Positions 1 to 5,819 of a stretch of 14,389 nt of DNA are shown in pieces. Each line of letters opens with the position of its first letter. The stretch's first letter is position 1. The notes under the pieces were generated by a model. It made no database searches. It saw only the letters and a list, made by a program, of their open reading frames with translations, and had not been told where the DNA came from. Source of the stretch: a virus. Its lineage: Duplodnaviria > Heunggongvirae > Uroviricota > Caudoviricetes. Location: positions 1 to 14,389 of the IMG/VR virus record IMGVR_UViG_3300015157_000027; one strand, given 5' to 3'. Both the position numbers and the translations under genes were made by a program.

Positions 1-477
1 ATCCTTACCGAACTGGTACTCTCCACCTGGATAGTCGGCATGGGCTATAACGATAGTTTCATGCCCGGTGTTCAGCTCAATGATATAGGGCAGACGCTTT
101 ACCAGCTCCACCAGCGCCCTGGCTAATATTTCCTGATCAGTGTCCAGCATGAAGAACCATTGACCACCATTCATTAGCCAGTTATTCACATTGCCTGCGG
201 GACTTAACGCATCGATCATTAATCGCTCGTGGTTTCCCATAACCGACCGAAACCAGGGCATCTGCAATAGCTCCAGGCATTCAACATTTTCGGTGCCGCG
301 ATCGATAAGGTCGCCAACCGATATCAGTAAATCCTGTGTCGGGTCAAAATCCACACGATGGAGTTCATTCATAAGTAGGGTGCAGCAACCGTGCAAATCA
401 CCAACAACCCATATGTTTCTGTAGCCTGAACCATCAATACGGCTATATAAATTCACTTCATGCAGCGCCTGATTCAT
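1..477 (-). CDS. Serine/threonine protein phosphatase, lambda PPase (ORF221)-like metallophosphoesterase; 3' end runs off the window
   Basis: Reverse-strand translation from ATG at 477 reads [31 protein letters not shown]...[10 protein letters not shown]...MGNHE..., carrying the calcineurin-like motifs GDxHG, GDxxDRG and GNHE and matching by eye the N-terminus of lambda phosphatase. The frame stays open to position 1, so no stop lies in the window, which is why the ORF track omits it. Start overlaps the stop of the upstream gene (ATGA). Confidence 0.85.
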
Positions 478-785
478 GCGGCAACCTTCTCCCGCAGCCA
501 GATACAAACCGGGCCATCTTCAGTGTCATGAATAGAGCCAACAAACCATCCTTCGCCCTCTGGTCGCTCTGGTTCCCAGGCGGCAATATCGGGACCATCT
601 GCGTCCAGATTAAAATGATCTTCATCCATACTGCGAATAGTCCACTGAAGATTATTTTCCTTCATCCAGGCGTCAAATTCCTCAGTGGATATATATTCAC
701 GACCTGCGCAAAACTTTTCATACTCCGGATGTGTCCAGCAGCCATATTCATCACGTTCTACCGGCATTTCTTTAATTGTGTTCAC
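474..785 (-). CDS. Hypothetical protein (103 aa), nin-region small ORF translationally coupled to the phosphatase gene
   Basis: ORF on the operon strand; its stop overlaps the phosphatase start and its start overlaps the upstream ORF stop (4-nt overlaps). No family recognised. Confidence 0.55.
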
Positions 786-1006
786 TCTTCATCCTCCAAA
801 TCAGCAACCGCGTCCATCACATCAGAACCGCGAATAACTTCAAAAGCGCGGCAGGCCATTTGAAATACCCGTTGCTCTTGCGGGTGCGGAGACTCCCAAT
901 ATTTGAAGCCTGGGCGATGCGTGTACCCCATCATGGAATAAAAATCGCCAGCAAGTTCAATCGCGGCATCAACAAGTTCGCGATTTGTCATCGTCTGTTC
1001 TGTCAT
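782..1006 (-). CDS. Hypothetical protein (74 aa), acidic C-terminus
   Basis: ORF in the operon direction with 4-nt overlaps to both neighbours; no recognisable motif. Confidence 0.5.
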   Translation of the reverse strand: MTEQTMTNRELVDAAIELAGDFYSMMGYTHRPGFKYWESPHPQEQRVFQMACRAFEVIRGSDVMDAVADLEDEE

Positions 1007-1278
1007 TTGGTTTTCTCCTGTCTGAACATCACTATCATCAGGTCGCCTTTTGTCGCTATCCTCGCTGTTGTGCCTGGTTCAATGCTGCCAAGTTCAAATG
1101 CGTCATAGAACGCCTCCAACGCTTTCTGGCGTTTTTCCTGTTTGCGGCGCTTTCCCCACTGCTTTAGAAAAACAGAGGCCGCCCACTTCCCCGCACTGAA
1201 CATGATGAAAAACCAACCGAGAAGCGCCAGACCGGTATTCAGGAGCGTATCGATCGTTATTGTCGTGTCGATATTCAC
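1003..1278 (-). CDS. Hypothetical membrane-anchored protein (91 aa): one N-terminal hydrophobic helix followed by a basic K/R-rich segment
   Basis: Translation contains LLNTGLALLGWFFIMFSAGKW followed by KQWGKRRKQEKRQK; overlapping start/stop coupling with neighbours. Confidence 0.5.
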   Translation of the reverse strand: MNIDTTITIDTLLNTGLALLGWFFIMFSAGKWAASVFLKQWGKRRKQEKRQKALEAFYDAFELGSIEPGTTARIATKGDLMIVMFRQEKTK

Positions 1279-1754
1279 TGGCTGCTTCCTCTTCGAAGCT
1301 CATCGGCAAAGTCAGTTGCATGTTCACCGAGTAGTTTCCAGTTATCGCGTATATCAGATGCAAGCGACTGTTCGGATTTTGAGTTACATTTCTGTGCAAA
1401 CATCTCCAATCCCTGCGCCCGGACTTCAGCCAGGAAAGCATCAGTGGTTGGCGTTTCAGGTATCTGTCTCCTCATCCGTTCTATTGCATGATTGAACCCG
1501 AAGTCTTCCGCGAGAGATACGTCATCCATATTGTCATTGTCATCCTCAATATCCCGTGATTCTGGAATTGCAGACTTTATTCCCGCATTCTCCGCCGCCA
1601 GCGCATTAGCACGCACCAGTTGCACTTCCAGTTGCGTTGCCAAATCGCTGATCAGCTTTGCCACACTACGCATATCAACGGCACCACATTCTGCTTTCAG
1701 TTCCGAAGCCATCTCATGCCCGGCGGCAACTAACCCTTTGATATTACTTTCCAT
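1275..1754 (-). CDS. Hypothetical acidic protein (159 aa); possibly Ea22-like phage accessory protein (weak recollection only)
   Basis: Long ORF in the operon direction with a DDNDNMDD acidic tract; preceded by an intergenic region carrying DnaA-box-like 9-mers. Family assignment not verifiable here. Confidence 0.55.
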   Translation of the reverse strand: MESNIKGLVAAGHEMASELKAECGAVDMRSVAKLISDLATQLEVQLVRANALAAENAGIKSAIPESRDIEDDNDNMDDVSLAEDFGFNHAIERMRRQIPETPTTDAFLAEVRAQGLEMFAQKCNSKSEQSLASDIRDNWKLLGEHATDFADELRRGSSQ

Positions 1755-1815
1755 CTTTACCCTCGCTTATCCACATAACTTATTGATAACATTGATAACT
1801 AAAAAGATCGTCGAT

Positions 1816-2160
1816 TCAGAACTCTTCGATTTTCCATCCGCCACCTGCTTTCTTTGGCTTAACCGTTACCCCGATGATTCGGAACGGATACTGATCTGCG
1901 GCGACTTTGGTTTTCACCCTGGCGTCGTCGGTCCAGAAACCTTTCACTTCGTGCAGTTCCATCTCTCCGGTGGCGAGCATCACAGCGAAATCTGGCGTAT
2001 AGAACGTGTTATCAGCTAACCGCAGCTTGATACCCTCGAATCGATACCAGGCGATTTCCCCTGCACGTTTACGCTGCTCAAGATGCTGGCAATACGCAGA
2101 TTCTGTTTTGTTCATCTGGCCTGTTTTGAGTCGACCAAGAGCCTGCATCTGTTTTCTCAT
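1816..2160 (-). CDS. DUF1064-like small PD-(D/E)XK-fold protein (putative nuclease/resolvase-like), nin region
   Basis: 114 aa; YTPDFAV ... ELHEVKG arrangement is consistent with a D...E-x-K nuclease core. Its RBS (GAGGT) lies inside one of the 15-bp operator-like palindromes. Confidence 0.6.
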   Translation of the reverse strand: MRKQMQALGRLKTGQMNKTESAYCQHLEQRKRAGEIAWYRFEGIKLRLADNTFYTPDFAVMLATGEMELHEVKGFWTDDARVKTKVAADQYPFRIIGVTVKPKKAGGGWKIEEF

Positions 2161-2163
2161 GAT

Positions 2164-2240
2164 TTACCTCTGAGGTAATTAAAAACCACATAAGACACGA
2201 AATCAATAGAGTTTAGAATATTTTATTACCTGATGGGTAA
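2164..2240 (-). promoter_or_regulatory. Candidate repressor-controlled promoter in front of the DUF1064 gene: two palindromes (2164-2178 TTACC-TCTGA-GGTAA; 2226-2240 TTACC-TGATG-GGTAA) flanking sigma70-like -35/-10 elements
   Basis: Read on the minus strand: TTGATT (plus 2201-2206), 17-bp spacer, TTTAAT (plus 2178-2183). One palindrome sits about 20 bp upstream of the -35 and the other overlaps the -10/+1/RBS, the same layout as the pL-like promoter at 5268-5345. Confidence 0.5.
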
Positions 2241-2251
2241 TTATTTGAGCG

Positions 2252-2272
2252 TAAAAAAATGCGCTATCGCGC
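2252..2272 (-). terminator. Weak tR2-like intrinsic terminator or attenuator just downstream of the P-like gene
   Basis: On the minus strand: short GCGC/GCGC stem with GATA loop followed by A + T7 (plus-strand A7 run at 2253-2259). Stem is only 4 bp, so low confidence. Confidence 0.3.
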
Positions 2273-2277
2273 TGGTA

Positions 2278-3078
2278 TTACTTGATAAATCCTGCCGCCT
2301 TTCCTCGCCTGTATTCCTCCATCAGCCACTGCGCCGGTGTTATTCCCCCAAGGGTGGCGGCGTTAGGCATGCATCCGAAACTTCGCCCTGGTGGATGGTA
2401 AACGTCTCTCCCTGTGTCCGGAGGTGTACTCATGGGCTCTGGCTTTGCCTGTATGCTGATCACCGGATCGGGTATCTGCTGTCCAGAAGCCACCTTTTTC
2501 GCCCAATCATCGAGCAGCCTGCGCGCATGTTTCTCAACCTCAATCTCGCTAAGCTGGCGCTGATACATTGCACGGCGGGTATCACATACGACCCAGTACA
2601 TAACCGGATGTCGCCACGGGAATCTTTCGGGACTACCAGGATATAAACTTTTTTCCTTGCTGTACCGGTGAAACTCCGCCATCACATCGTCAATGGTGAC
2701 GCCAAGAACCATCTTGCTGTCTTTGCACCACTTGATGAATTGCCCTGGCGACGGCCAGAACGGAGATTCACTGGCGCGGGCGTGGCGCATACCAGCAGAA
2801 ACCTGTTCACGGGTTCGGATCCCACCTTCGGCAAACGCAGCAATCCACTGCTGTTTTGCAGCGACTTCCTGCTCTGGCGTCTTCAGGTTGGTTACCACTG
2901 CCGCCGGAAACAGTTGTTTCAGCTGTTTGAAAAGGGCATCAACAAGCCTCTCTGCTGACATGTTCACCACGTTGTCATTGTTGGTGTACTGATGCTCATA
3001 ACCTGACATGCGAGAAAGGGCTTCTCCGTCACGGTTTTGTATCGCGGTAAAAACGTTGTTCACAAGAAATCCTCCCAT
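2278..3078 (-). CDS. P: Replication protein P-like DnaB helicase loader
   Basis: 266 aa; segment ...LFPAAVVTNLKTPEQEVAAKQQWIAAFAEGGIRTREQVSAGMRHARASESPFWPSPGQFIKWC... aligns by eye with lambda P (...LATFPASL...RRQWVLAFRENGITTMEQVNAGMRVARRQNRPFLPSPGQFVAWC...). Start is ambiguous: ATG at 3078 or an internal Met about 23 codons in. Confidence 0.85.
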   Translation of the reverse strand: MGGFLVNNVFTAIQNRDGEALSRMSGYEHQYTNNDNVVNMSAERLVDALFKQLKQLFPAAVVTNLKTPEQEVAAKQQWIAAFAEGGIRTREQVSAGMRHARASESPFWPSPGQFIKWCKDSKMVLGVTIDDVMAEFHRYSKEKSLYPGSPERFPWRHPVMYWVVCDTRRAMYQRQLSEIEVEKHARRLLDDWAKKVASGQQIPDPVISIQAKPEPMSTPPDTGRDVYHPPGRSFGCMPNAATLGGITPAQWLMEEYRRGKAAGFIK

Positions 3079-3875
3079 GCTTCAGGGCTGTTCCAGTGCG
3101 GAACGTTGTTATCAGGTAATGTTGATTGCTTCTGTCTGCTAATCTGCAGCCGCCTTGCCAGCTTCTGCTCCCACTGTGCCTGATGGTATGCCTTACCCTC
3201 AGCCATCCAGTAAATTCTGAACTCTGCAAGTTCCTGTGCCGTTGGCAGACTGTCCAGGTAGATCCCCTGCAATGAGCTTTTCCGAAGAAAGTCATCTGAT
3301 GGCTGCCATTGTTCATGCATGACAAATTTGCCTAATTGCCCTGGCCCACCAGGAGGAACAAAGTTATTCATCACGGCGTTGTTTGCGCCGGGGTCATGAT
3401 GCACAGAATCCCCGTTTTTTGTCCTGCTCTCCCTCTCTTGGTTAAATGACTGGTTATATGACTGGTTCTGGATCCCGTTTTTGGGATCATTCAACATCCC
3501 GTTTTTGGGATCATTCAACATCCCGTTTTTGGGTATATTCCCGTTTTCGGTAACATTACCGTTTTCGGGTTCATTGCCCCCCTCTCGGTTGCCTTTAATG
3601 TTCCCGTTTTTGGTTATATTAAGAGAGAAAACCCGCACTCTTTTTGTCGCTCCCTTTCTCTCTCCGGTATCTGAAATAAGCCCCATTTTCATGAGCGATA
3701 TAAGCCCGGCCTGCACGGTTTTTTTATTCAGGCAAGTGTCTTTAACGAGGCGTTCTATGCTGGGGTAGCAGAGGTTATATTCATCGGCTCTGTCAGCCAT
3801 CGAGAGCAGTATGAGCTTTAATGATGAGCTACCTGGATCTGTCTCCCAGGCCCAATCTGTTGCATGTCTGCTCAT
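3060..3875 (-). CDS. Replication initiator, O-like (N-terminal wHTH-like domain, central iteron-encoded repeat linker, C-terminal domain)
   Basis: Sits immediately upstream of, and overlapping, the P-like gene; contains tandem DNA iterons in mid-gene that encode a repeated peptide (PKNGMLND x2 and degenerate NGN repeats), as lambda O contains ori. Protein similarity to lambda O itself is not obvious by eye. Confidence 0.65.
   Translation of the reverse strand: MSRHATDWAWETDPGSSSLKLILLSMADRADEYNLCYPSIERLVKDTCLNKKTVQAGLISLMKMGLISDTGERKGATKRVRVFSLNITKNGNIKGNREGGNEPENGNVTENGNIPKNGMLNDPKNGMLNDPKNGIQNQSYNQSFNQERESRTKNGDSVHHDPGANNAVMNNFVPPGGPGQLGKFVMHEQWQPSDDFLRKSSLQGIYLDSLPTAQELAEFRIYWMAEGKAYHQAQWEQKLARRLQISRQKQSTLPDNNVPHWNSPEAWEDFL
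3471..3620. repeat. Candidate origin iterons: two perfect 24-bp tandem units (ATCCCGTTTTTGGGATCATTCAAC at 3472-3495 and 3496-3519) plus about four degenerate copies of the CCCGTTTT(T/C)GG core
   Basis: Direct reading of the sequence. Core has inverted arms ATCCC...GGGAT. Location inside the initiator gene mirrors lambda ori. Confidence 0.65.
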
Positions 3876-3890
3876 GATTAATCTCCGCTA

Positions 3891-4091
3891 TCAGCTTGAA
3901 TGTTGTGGGGAGGAATTAATCATGATCTGCTTAATCTCTGCCCTGATACGACGGTTTGATTCCATGGTGCACTCAACACAGTGTCCGTTGTAAACCCAGC
4001 GTTCACTGTCATGTCCGTGCTTACATGTTTTTCCGGTGTAGTAGCGTTTAAGTCCGCGCTTTGCGGCATCAATACGTGTAATGATTTCCAT
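3891..4091 (-). CDS. Small zinc-finger-like protein (66 aa) at the cII-equivalent position
   Basis: MEIITRIDAAKRGLKRYYTGKTCKHGHDSERWVYNGHCVECT... with C-x-H-G-H ... H-C-x-E-C spacing. Start chosen at ATG 4091 (RBS-like AACAGGG upstream) rather than the ORF-track start at 4154, whose N-terminal extension looks like read-through of intergenic DNA. Confidence 0.5.
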   Translation of the reverse strand: MEIITRIDAAKRGLKRYYTGKTCKHGHDSERWVYNGHCVECTMESNRRIRAEIKQIMINSSPQHSS

Positions 4092-4171
4092 GGTAAGCCC
4101 TGTTATTAGTATTGGGATTACGGTCATTTTGTGCTGACACAAAAAAAAGATCAACCAGATTTGGTTTTTTA

Positions 4172-4186
4172 TTACCTTTGAGGTAC
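4172..4186. promoter_or_regulatory. Operator-like palindrome TTACC-TTTGA-GGTAC (one half-site mismatch) between the cro terminator and the zinc-finger gene
   Basis: Matches the ATTACC-N5-GGTAAT family; on the minus strand it is followed after 16 bp by TTGATC, a 17-bp spacer and a weak -10 (CAAAAT). Confidence 0.4.
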
Positions 4187-4190
4187 GAAT

Positions 4191-4220
4191 AGATATGAAA
4201 AGACCGCCGGGTGGCGGTCT
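4191..4220 (-). terminator. tR1-like intrinsic terminator downstream of the cro-like gene
   Basis: Stem AGACCGCC / GGCGGTCT (4201-4208 / 4213-4220) with 4-nt loop; on the minus strand the hairpin is followed by UUUCAUAUCU. Confidence 0.55.
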
Positions 4221-4241
4221 ACAGAGGGTTGTAGCTGGATA

Positions 4242-4472
4242 TCATGAGTAGAAGAAGTATGCCAGTTCTGCTTTTGAGCGCAGCCATTGTCTTGATTTAC
4301 AGGCTTTAAAAAGCCCATTCATCAATACTTTACCTGGCATTTTGCGCTTACCTGTTAAGTGAGTCTGGATATAGTGACTCGTCGTTCCGGCTTCCTGTGC
4401 GAAGGCTTCACGCTCATCCGGAGTAAGTGCAAGCCAGTGCTTTTTGAAATCGAAATGTCCGTTATCGCTCAT
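4242..4472 (-). CDS. Cro-like small HTH regulator (76 aa), first gene of the minus-strand early operon
   Basis: Divergent from the repressor gene across an operator-containing intergenic region. Sequence FAQEAGTTSHYIQTHLTGKRKMPGKVL resembles the lambda Cro HTH region ([29 protein letters not shown]) in pattern. Confidence 0.65.
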   Translation of the reverse strand: MSDNGHFDFKKHWLALTPDEREAFAQEAGTTSHYIQTHLTGKRKMPGKVLMNGLFKACKSRQWLRSKAELAYFFYS

Positions 4473-4497
4473 AGCTATTGCCTGATATTTATTTCAG

Positions 4498-4571
4498 ATA
4501 ATAAATATTCACCCATAAGGTAACAAAAATCAAGGATAGTTACCTATGAGGTGCATTTACCTGTTGGGTAA
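4498..4571. promoter_or_regulatory. OR-like switch region: three operator-like palindromes (4509-4523 TCACC-CATAA-GGTAA; 4539-4553 TTACC-TATGA-GGTGC; 4557-4571 TTACC-TGTTG-GGTAA) plus a PR-like promoter for cro
   Basis: Minus-strand promoter: -35 TTGTTA (plus 4521-4526), 17-bp spacer, -10 TATTAT (plus 4498-4503); the first palindrome overlaps the spacer/-35. A PRM-type promoter for the repressor is not clearly resolvable; the repressor ORF has almost no RBS, consistent with a short-leader transcript. Confidence 0.6.
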
Positions 4572-4626
4572 TATTGCTTTAAATTGAATCATCTACTGAT
4601 TCATATATGAGGCGATTTTCCAGAAA

Positions 4627-5211
4627 ATGAAAAGTATCCAGGACGTCCGCAGGCAAAATCTCAACGACTTGATCGACCGTGAATTCAATGGTGTTCAGAC
4701 GCGGATGGCAGAAAAACTTGGAACTCAGGCAAATCTGGTAAACCGCTGGGCTCTTGGCAAGAAGGTTATCGGCGACCAGGTTGCGCGAAAAATTGAAGCT
4801 GCCGCCAATAAACCCCGTAACTGGCTTGATATCGATCGCTCGCTTTCTCAGGAAGGTTTTCAGCCTGTCGGCCCGAGTGATATAGGTCAGCTGGCGGCTC
4901 ACAACCTGGAACGCTGGATGAGCGAAAGCCGCGACCTTTCAACGCAGGGAAAACTACACCGCGCATCCGGCGTCGCCCAGGTGACAATCAGCCGCCTGTT
5001 AAACAATGAGGTCAGCGTTTCCATTTCCACCCTGGAGAATGTTGCATCCGCATTCGGGCGTCACGGATATGAATTACTGATTCACCCGCACGACCCCGCG
5101 ACTATCAACTATGACCGCTCGCGCTACGCATTGTTACCTGAAACAGAGAAGGCAAAGATCGAAAGTTACATTGAATTTGTCATCAACCAGAACGAAAAAA
5201 ACAAACAATAA
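4627..5211 (+). CDS. CI-like prophage repressor composed of two HTH (XRE-type) domains, no recognisable S24/LexA-like autocleavage domain
   Basis: 194 aa; HTH-like segments GVQTRMAEKLGTQANLVNRWALGKK and KLHRASGVAQVTISRLLNNE; no Ala-Gly cleavage site or Ser/Lys dyad region seen. Divergent from cro-like gene and followed by a strong terminator. Confidence 0.75.
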   Translation: MKSIQDVRRQNLNDLIDREFNGVQTRMAEKLGTQANLVNRWALGKKVIGDQVARKIEAAANKPRNWLDIDRSLSQEGFQPVGPSDIGQLAAHNLERWMSESRDLSTQGKLHRASGVAQVTISRLLNNEVSVSISTLENVASAFGRHGYELLIHPHDPATINYDRSRYALLPETEKAKIESYIEFVINQNEKNKQ

Positions 5212-5231
5212 AATCATATTTTTCAGTAAGT

Positions 5232-5258
5232 AAGCCGCCTTATGGCGGCTTTTTTATT
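5232..5258 (+). terminator. Rho-independent terminator after the repressor gene
   Basis: Stem AAGCCGCC / GGCGGCTT with TTAT loop followed by TTTTTATT on the plus strand. Confidence 0.8.
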
Positions 5259-5267
5259 GCCTATTCG

Positions 5268-5345
5268 ATTACCTAACGGGTAATTTTTTTAACTCATATC
5301 TATTGACATCAAACCAGATACGCATAATTATTACCTCAACGGTAA
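5268..5345 (+). promoter_or_regulatory. pL-like early-left promoter with two flanking operators (5269-5283 TTACC-TAACG-GGTAA; 5331-5345 TTACC-TCAAC-GGTAA)
   Basis: Consensus -35 TTGACA at 5303-5308; candidate -10 hexamers CATAAT/TAATTA at 5323-5330; one palindrome lies about 20 bp upstream of the -35 and the other immediately downstream of the -10. Confidence 0.65.
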
Positions 5346-5364
5346 CAGACCGAGGTAACAAGTT

Positions 5365-5517
5365 ATGCAGTGGAAAATCATCAACGGTTGGTACTGCGTT
5401 ACTGCATGCGGATTCATGAGCTGGAAGTTCCGCACCTTACAGGAAGGCATTAAGTGGGCTTTCGTCAGCAAAGAAGCTCGCGATGTAGCCAACGATAACG
5501 AGATATGGGAGGGCTGA
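5365..5517 (+). CDS. Small ORF (50 aa) at the first position of the early-left operon (kil-equivalent position); function unknown
   Basis: Not in the ORF track because it is under 60 aa. ATG at 5365 is preceded by GAGGT at an 8-nt spacing; stop overlaps the next gene start (TGATAATG). Translation MQWKIINGWYCVTACGFMSWKFRTLQEGIKWAFVSKEARDVANDNEIWEG. Confidence 0.4.
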   Translation: MQWKIINGWYCVTACGFMSWKFRTLQEGIKWAFVSKEARDVANDNEIWEG

Positions 5518-5519
5518 TA

Positions 5520-5819
5520 ATGAACGTTAAACAGCAGAAAAATCTTCAAAAAATCATGCTGGCATTCGACAAGGACTACCGCCTGTCAGAACAGCTATAT
5601 GACCGACAAGTTGAACTGATTGAGAGCATCCGACTTCATCAACTGTCCTCAACTTTTGACGTTGTAACAGGCAAAGGCGTTCGTCAGGAAGTACTGGAGG
5701 CTGCTAAAGACAGCCCTGAGTTCGAAGAACTGATGGATGCCTATCGGCGAGAGGCAATGGCAATTATCGCCCGCTGGGATCTGGCGGATCAGCTTGATGG
5801 GCAGAGGGACGCGGCATGA
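5520..5819 (+). CDS. Gam-like protein (99 aa), possible host-nuclease (RecBCD) inhibitor
   Basis: Start taken at ATG 5520 (RBS GGGAGGG) rather than the ORF-track 5505. Same size as lambda GamS and sits directly upstream of the exo/bet analogues; C-terminal DSPEFEELMDAYRREAMAIIA resembles lambda Gam [22 protein letters not shown] by eye. Confidence 0.5.
   Translation: MNVKQQKNLQKIMLAFDKDYRLSEQLYDRQVELIESIRLHQLSSTFDVVTGKGVRQEVLEAAKDSPEFEELMDAYRREAMAIIARWDLADQLDGQRDAA

Follow-up and report, generated by a model that had tools for sequence, protein, structure and literature searches.

The DNA analysed here, a 14,389-nucleotide (nt) stretch of the tailed-phage record IMGVR_UViG_3300015157_000027 (hereafter the window, meaning this stretch at its full length), carries at its left end a run of four small open reading frames (ORFs) on the minus strand, designated g1 to g4, which leads into an adjoining phosphatase ORF (ppp). 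The run lies on a backbone like that of Escherichia phage phiV10, and the joint between this backbone and DNA matching a phage-plasmid falls within the first of the four genes. The features are as follows:

1275-1754, minus strand: g1, 159 amino acids (aa), ATG start
1003-1278, minus strand: g2, 91 aa, GTG start
782-1006, minus strand: g3, 74 aa, ATG start
474-785, minus strand: g4, 103 aa, GTG start
1-477, minus strand: phosphatase ORF, first 159 codons, with its ATG at 477-475; runs off the window
1582-1604, minus strand: mosaic joint, a 23-nt island coding ALAAENAG, common to the phiV10-like and D6-like parents

An initial annotation, made from the sequence, had described four ORFs of 159, 91, 74 and 103 aa linked by 4-nt overlaps and feeding into the phosphatase gene, and both points hold at these coordinates: the g1/g2, g2/g3, g3/g4 and g4/phosphatase junctions are all 4-nt stop/start overlaps (ATGA or GTGA), and a Shine-Dalgarno-like GGAG/GAGG lies 7-10 nt 5' of each start, within the preceding gene. 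The same ORFs are called by RefSeq annotators in related records. In comparisons with 30-40 distinct full-length alleles, g2, g3 and g4 have median ratios of nonsynonymous to synonymous substitution rates (dN/dS) of 0.23, 0.07 and 0.11, respectively; these three genes are under purifying selection, and the exact protein sequences occur on 423 (g2), at least 1000 (g3) and 429 (g4) contigs, mostly from Escherichia coli. Because of these dN/dS values (0.07-0.23) and of confident AlphaFold2 (AF2) models, the ORFs are taken as real genes and spurious frames are ruled out; a programmed frameshift or a fused polyprotein is likewise excluded, since each gene has its own Shine-Dalgarno sequence and start and stand-alone homologues exist. 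The first gene, initially described as highly acidic, does have a low isoelectric point (pI 4.6), with g3 (4.4) and g4 (4.3) being at least as acidic; g2 has a pI of 9.8. Between 474 and 2160, the coding strand has no site that resembles a promoter or terminator in a consensus scan.

Recent import from a phage-plasmid

Positions 1-1604 of the window differ by one mismatch in 1604 nt (99.94% identity) from the D6-like (P1-type) phage-plasmid pCR-0543_3 (L337) of E. coli strain 205, and positions 1582-2400 are 96% identical to phiV10; the plasmid and phiV10 alignments overlap over the 23 nt of the ALAAENAG island (1582-1604). As this joint falls inside g1, the gene is a chimera, whose residues 1-50 come from the backbone's gp46-like gene ("eae-like") and whose residues 51-159 come from the plasmid's 231-aa Ea22-like gene. 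Residues 51-159 are found at 99% identity in other loci, and residues 1-114 reach only 63% identity to phiV10 gp46. The exact g1 sequence forms a singleton cluster and the exact chimera was read on 10 contigs; it is present on independent assemblies, including a 232-kb scaffold, so that chimeric g1 is rare but real. At the level of sequence comparison, a recombinant origin of the block, by recent transfer from a D6-like phage-plasmid, is established. Gene exchange between P1-like phage-plasmids and phages is known (PMC10879196).

With up to three mismatches allowed, the 340 loci fetched contain 237 copies of the 23-mer, spread over 169 of them; the flanks of these copies fall into 18 upstream and 20 downstream types that form 43 combinations. 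The upstream flank type of the window is paired with four types on the downstream side, and its downstream type with five on the upstream side. We infer that the island is a recurrent homologous crossover point, at which accessory cassettes would be shuffled among phiV10-like, lambdoid/P22-like and P1/D6-like elements. A related arrangement is present in the closed E. coli chromosome CP145099, whose phiV10-like prophage holds the g1 C-terminal part-g2-g3-g4-phosphatase block at 96% identity: here ~700 nt, comprising the remainder of an ORF of 187 aa together with a small Ea22-like one, are inserted at the ALAAENAG joint (L001 4354-5060). Because this insertion sits at the same joint, the crossover island appears to have been used more than once.

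The closest known counterpart of the block is the ppp region (orf94-orf97) of phage D6 and of other P1-type phage-plasmids, in which a DUF4752 gene (the family of g2, see below), g3, g4 and ppp follow one another in the same order, with the same 4-nt overlaps and at 95-99.9% nucleotide identity. The block of the window differs in being part of an integrated phiV10-like podophage prophage, 3' of the DnaT-like, P and DUF1064 genes, and in that ppp is truncated in relatives with the same backbone. A paper on a D6 variant contains no discussion of this region. 

In E. coli F2_81, the native CRISPR2 array of type I-E (clustered regularly interspaced short palindromic repeats; ygcE-queE) contains a spacer that matches positions 783-814 of the window, minus strand, at 32 of 32 nt (L336 1501-1532). 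The protospacer spans the end of g3 and the start of g4 and has an interference-proficient ATG protospacer-adjacent motif at 815-817; given this match and the proficient motif, an E. coli lineage has been immunised against the cassette or its phage-plasmid carrier.

Families and architectures of the four proteins

The initial annotation could place no motif in any of the four proteins, which is incorrect for g1 (PF13935) and g2 (PF15944). In g1, residues 44-111 match the Pfam family Ead_Ea22 (PF13935) at 29.3 bits, against a cutoff of 27, and the full-length protein matches phrog_492 at 3e-51, which, like the PHROGs of the other three proteins, is listed as being of unknown function. With lambda Ea22 and P22 Ead, g1 shares a central coiled-coil region, the ALAAENAG and TPxTDAFLAEVRAQG motifs and the character of a predicted early accessory gene, and in its product, as in theirs, a coiled coil separates a short N-terminus from a variable C-terminal domain (PMC10834534); it differs from them in its position, which is on the replication side and outside the exo-xis region, and in being a recent chimera of two different family members. 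The Ea22 proteins of lambda and of Shiga toxin (Stx) phages favour lysogeny, and lambda Ea22 forms a tetramer whose C-terminal domain is variable (PMC7093339, PMC10834534); this domain has been solved for lambda as a dimeric alpha/beta domain and is not the same across homologues (PMC10834534). A phmmer search of all Protein Data Bank (PDB) chains, which should include the lambda Ea22 C-terminal domain, found no match to the C-terminal part of g1 at E<=1.

The second protein, g2, belongs to DUF4752 (PF15944; 137.4 bits against a cutoff of 27, with residues 7-89 aligned to profile positions 1-83 of 84) and to phrog_667. It consists of a short acidic N-terminus, a hydrophobic segment (residues ~12-37), a basic stretch (KQWGKRRKQEKRQK, with a charge of about +8 in residues 39-52) and a conserved C-terminal region of ~40 aa, an architecture preserved in a homologue with 32% identity. 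Its earlier description as a single-pass protein with a strongly basic tail is reasonable as far as one hydrophobic segment followed by a basic stretch is concerned, the hydrophobicity itself being borderline (Kyte-Doolittle 19-residue maximum of 1.59, at residue 12); g2 is a predicted inner-membrane protein with one anchoring helix. Literature searches for DUF4752, the protein accessions and the phiV10 gene names found no papers, and one for the accessory genes of phiV10 gave no relevant result.

The g3 protein (phrog_4132, the family of phiV10 gp47) is an acidic three-helix protein whose AF2 model has a predicted local distance difference test score (pLDDT) of 92.6; it is stand-alone in all 148 homologues found and restricted to Enterobacterales. 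The g4 protein (phrog_1372) is an acidic alpha/beta protein (pLDDT 87.4). Both of these confident models lack a significant match to any PDB fold, and a Foldseek comparison of the g4 model with BFVD returned only uncharacterised phage proteins. Searches with all four proteins gave chance-level matches only among PDB sequences (phmmer) and nothing below E=0.01 in PADLOC, where the one match, at E=0.018, is at chance level; NCBIfam yielded none for g2-g4 (E<=0.1) and only a chance-level match for g1. The name "LygF", a label found on one phage record only, was set aside as carrying no functional information.

A profile built from 43 g4 homologues collects 1024 clusters at 50% identity (E<=1e-3). 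Among the 144 best representatives of the domain, 79 are at least 150 aa long, with the g4 domain located at either end and, in one protein, present in two copies. Its fusion partners include an Ea22-type coiled coil with a TPATDAFL motif (P0215), Lar-like zinc ribbons (three proteins, including P0238 and P0301), a Tad2-like/DUF2829 domain (one protein, P0275), an Rv2179c-like exonuclease (two proteins, P0272 and P0276), DHH/DHHA1 (one protein), KTSC and a winged helix; the majority of the partners match nothing in Pfam. Judged by these profile matches, g4 is a stand-alone copy of a widespread and promiscuous phage domain that in other proteins can form the variable C-terminal domain of the Ea22 type. 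In Hafnia prophages (L330 3001-3952), a g4 homologue overlaps the start of a gene for an Rv2179c-like 3'-5' exonuclease; because the two overlap as genes in Hafnia and are fused in P0272 and P0276, a functional association between them is possible.

With the anti-defence proteins Lar and Tad2, to both types of which its domain is fused, g4 has in common that it is small, acidic, phage-restricted and, as predicted from sequence, early-expressed; it differs in that the g4 protein resembles neither Lar nor Tad2 and has no significant PADLOC or PDB match. The Lar and Tad2 fusions, which are few, may thus be a lead toward counter-defence for g4 and do not make it a member of either group. A more specific proposal, that g4 is an undescribed, widespread phage domain without a Pfam model or solved analogue, which binds targets to act against host immunity or physiology either alone or in fusions, and that g3, the most conserved of the four, is a second such effector, is at present tentative and rather doubtful.

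Linkage among the four genes and to the phosphatase

Up to 80 viral loci were fetched for each of four baits (g4, g3, g2 and the phosphatase), and six proteins were mapped onto the 316 related loci. With g4 as bait, 40 of 80 loci have g4 without any of the others within 2.5 kb, and ~25 have g2-g3-g4-ppp; with g3, the gene is also seen alone, with g1, or with g2 only. The g2 loci include 19 of 80 in which g2 is followed by an Ea22-like gene, the reverse of the order in the window, and 16 in which g2 is alone; g2-g4, g2-g3 and g1-g3 pairs are also among the arrangements. None of g2-g4 is found near the phosphatase in 50 of the 76 informative loci retrieved with that bait, the block being limited to phosphatases of at least 86% identity. 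By neighbour clustering, the gene that follows g4 is Ea22-like in 29 loci and the phosphatase in 25, which are similar frequencies. Moreover, divergent g3 homologues of Serratia and Erwinia have no phosphatase within 3 kb, and divergent g4 homologues of Hafnia and Klebsiella/Raoultella have none nearby.

The phosphatase ORF (PF00149; phrog_246, NinI-like; PrpA/PrpB-like in NCBIfam) contains its GDxHG, GDxxDRG and GNHE motifs within the 159 in-window codons, and its C-terminal third, with the GHTP metal ligands expected there, falls beyond the window. In chromosomal hybrids with a phiV10-like backbone (L338, L339 and H31), this ORF is truncated beside intact g2-g4: in L338 and L339, unrelated sequence follows codon 158, the ORF stops at 199 aa and the GHTP region is lost (L338 9278-9877). 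The phosphatase of CP145099 is flagged as partial by RefSeq.

Independent assortment, the location of divergent homologues elsewhere and the broken phosphatase beside intact g2-g4 argue for independence of the genes and for a link to the phosphatase that is a matter of history, not of demonstrable function. With a probability of roughly 0.7, the four genes are independent accessory cassettes without dependence on the phosphatase. Against this reading, the loci compared are close relatives that were retrieved with these very proteins, so that sampling bias affects the co-occurrence counts. In addition, g2-g3-g4-ppp, which occur together only in the D6-like haplotype, keep their order at 91-99.9% identity in the 85 of 5426 complete E. 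coli genomes that carry them, mostly on plasmids, and the exact g4 protein has the same order around it at each of the eight sites shown, most of them on contigs of D6-like size. Recent common descent can explain the haplotype; there may also be a functional reason for this linkage.

Such a functional reason is central to the initial proposal of a four-gene module that may act with the phosphatase; in one version of such a model, the small proteins would work with or on the enzyme as regulators, a membrane anchor or substrates-adaptors. Although the overlaps are tight at every junction, including that of g4 with the phosphatase, and the order g2-g3-g4-ppp never varies in D6-like phage-plasmids and recurs in the 85 E. 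coli genomes, this proposal now appears improbable. Even among relatives of at least 83% identity, every one of the genes can be found in the absence of the others, and the phosphatase in the absence of all of them, so that conserved synteny with the phosphatase across genomes is largely absent outside the D6-like haplotype; the 4-nt overlap is not peculiar to the block, as the same junction forms whichever gene sits upstream, being constant at the start of g2 or g3 with an unrelated Ea22-like, DUF7446-like or DUF4406-like gene or with g2. The divergent g3 and g4 homologues lack a phosphatase nearby, and in the chromosomal hybrids the enzyme is broken at codon 158 or earlier, with g2-g4 intact. 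The exact g1 is, finally, a singleton cluster, compared with at least 423 contigs for each of g2-g4, and since g1 is a recent chimera the four-gene set must be young and rare. A smaller unit, a toxin-antitoxin, abortive-infection or superinfection-exclusion pair made of g2 and g3 (or g3 and g4), is also unlikely. Small phage membrane proteins are often toxic or mediate exclusion, and a basic membrane toxin with an acidic downstream partner would fit the basic, predicted membrane-anchored g2 (pI 9.8) and the acidic g3 (pI 4.4), whose start overlaps the g2 stop; however, g2 lacks g3 in more than half of the g2 loci, g3 lacks g2 in more than half of the g3 loci, and neither matches a PADLOC family. 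Because g2 and g3 mostly occur apart, they do not show the obligate pairing that defines toxin-antitoxin systems. It is possible that g2 acts by itself as an exclusion or toxic protein, which fits independent cassettes.

The juxtaposition of the genes could also be an artefact, produced in assembly by joining a chromosomal phiV10-like prophage and a co-resident D6-like plasmid across their shared sequence. The window is identical to L338 over 1135-9730, except for one 24-nt iteron copy, and all 69 differences to the otherwise identical L338 and L339 are within 163-1134, where it has the plasmid allele (one mismatch to pCR-0543_3); moreover, its first base is located 9 nt from the point at which the plasmid and hybrid-prophage sequences diverge. 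The patch at 163-1134 could reflect gene conversion with a co-resident D6-like plasmid, or mixing during assembly. That the whole arrangement is artificial is nevertheless hard to credit, because the g1 chimera and the gene order are also found in the independent assemblies, with the 232-kb scaffold among them, and the closed chromosome CP145099 has the downstream block in a phiV10-like prophage; on these grounds the architecture is regarded as real, and doubt is limited to the patch and to the completeness of the phosphatase.

Genomic setting and proposed working

Positions 772-12682 of the window are 96% identical to phiV10 (Uetakevirus), and the layout is that of phiV10/epsilon15, with tailspike, lysis genes, integrase, recombination genes, repressor, cro and replication genes. 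The features leading from the early promoter candidate to the accessory run are:

4498-4526, minus strand: PR-like early promoter candidate (consensus scan 9/12), 5' of the cro-like gene, pointing away from the repressor gene
4472-4242, minus strand: cro-like gene
4154-3891, minus strand: small ORF
3875-3060, minus strand: DnaT/HTH_36 replication initiator
3078-2278, minus strand: lambda-P-like loader
1816-2160, minus strand: DUF1064 gene, annotated as Holliday-junction-resolvase-like (PF06356, phrog_190; 96% to phiV10 gp45)

DUF1064 is the final backbone gene ahead of the accessory run, and the slot that follows it corresponds to the phiV10 accessory region gp46-gp55. In relatives with the same backbone, the operon continues through Ead/Ea22 and DUF551 genes to the small terminase, and no Pfam-recognisable Q-type gene is called before the terminase. 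Compared with gp46-gp48 of phiV10, the run occupies the same slot after DUF1064, its g3 belongs to the gp47 family and the N-terminus of g1 is gp46-like; the two differ in that phiV10 has no DUF4752, g4 or phosphatase here, its gp47 being followed by a protein of Ead/Ea22 + DUF550 type.

The initial annotation assigned the run to a lambdoid nin-type slot. The lambda nin region, ninA-ninI between P and Q, consists of non-essential small genes, many with overlapping stop and start codons, and includes the NinI phosphatase. The two regions are alike in their analogous position, with small overlapping genes between replication and late genes, and in having a NinI-type phosphatase; they differ in that none of g1-g4 matches a nin family in Pfam or PHROGs, in the Uetakevirus backbone and in the absence of a recognisable Q-type gene from the relatives. 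With a phiV10-like backbone, assignment to lambda nin is ruled out and the analogy is positional only; what is borne out is the broader description of co-oriented, overlapping small accessory genes of unknown function 3' of the replication genes.

Within the DnaT-like gene, six iteron-like direct repeats with 24-nt and 18-nt spacing (3472-3624) encode NG-rich repeats and, by analogy with lambda O, probably mark the replication origin; the window has one 24-nt iteron copy fewer than L338 and L340. In the early-left operon, an ORF for a PerC-like activator extends over the start of a gene for an MT-A70 DNA methyltransferase (8155-9097, plus strand), and an AlpA-like regulator (7797-8045) adjoins this pair.

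The region is best explained as the accessory end of an early rightward (replication-side) operon in a temperate E. coli prophage of phiV10 type, into which ~1.6 kb from a D6/P1-type phage-plasmid was spliced by a crossover in an Ead/Ea22-family gene at the 23-nt ALAAENAG island, bringing in the distal two thirds of an Ea22-like gene, the DUF4752 gene, g3, g4 and at least 159 codons of ppp. Early transcription of the entire rightward operon would start at the PR-like promoter, g1-g4 probably being co-transcribed with the replication genes after induction or infection and probably translationally coupled through their ATGA/GTGA overlaps. Each gene would be a separate exchangeable cassette whose own small protein acts on the host or on competing elements: g1 as an oligomeric coiled-coil scaffold of Ea22 type with a swappable C-terminal effector domain, g2 as a small inner-membrane-anchored protein with a cytoplasmic C-terminus, and g3 and g4 as small, acidic, soluble binders of host or rival-phage targets. 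Separate early host-interaction proteins are the best guess for the four, and modulation of host defence or physiology is the likeliest class for g3 and g4.

Two points weigh against parts of this picture. A short GC hairpin followed by a T run, read by eye at 2245-2275 (minus strand) between the P-like gene and DUF1064 and missed by the scan, coincides with the annotated putative terminator of phiV10; it is weak, and because of it read-through or antitermination may be required for DUF1064 and g1-g4 to be expressed, which speaks against simple co-transcription with the replication genes. The host-interaction or anti-defence role, in turn, is argued from context and from a few domain fusions, as there are no significant PADLOC, NCBIfam, PDB sequence or fold matches.

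In summary, this is an ordinary mosaic accessory region, whose genes are already catalogued as families of unknown function; the crossover island, the recent transfer and the size and fusions of the g4 family are modestly useful and would not surprise a phage genomicist. With one mismatch in 1604 nt, the region provides a clean case in which a P1/D6-type phage-plasmid has very recently passed genes to an integrated podophage prophage, and the ALAAENAG island looks like a general linker for the shuffling of accessory cassettes. The g4 domain merits definition as a family, and g2, g3 and g4, which are found exactly or nearly so in hundreds to thousands of E. coli contigs, are candidates for anti-defence and host-takeover screens.

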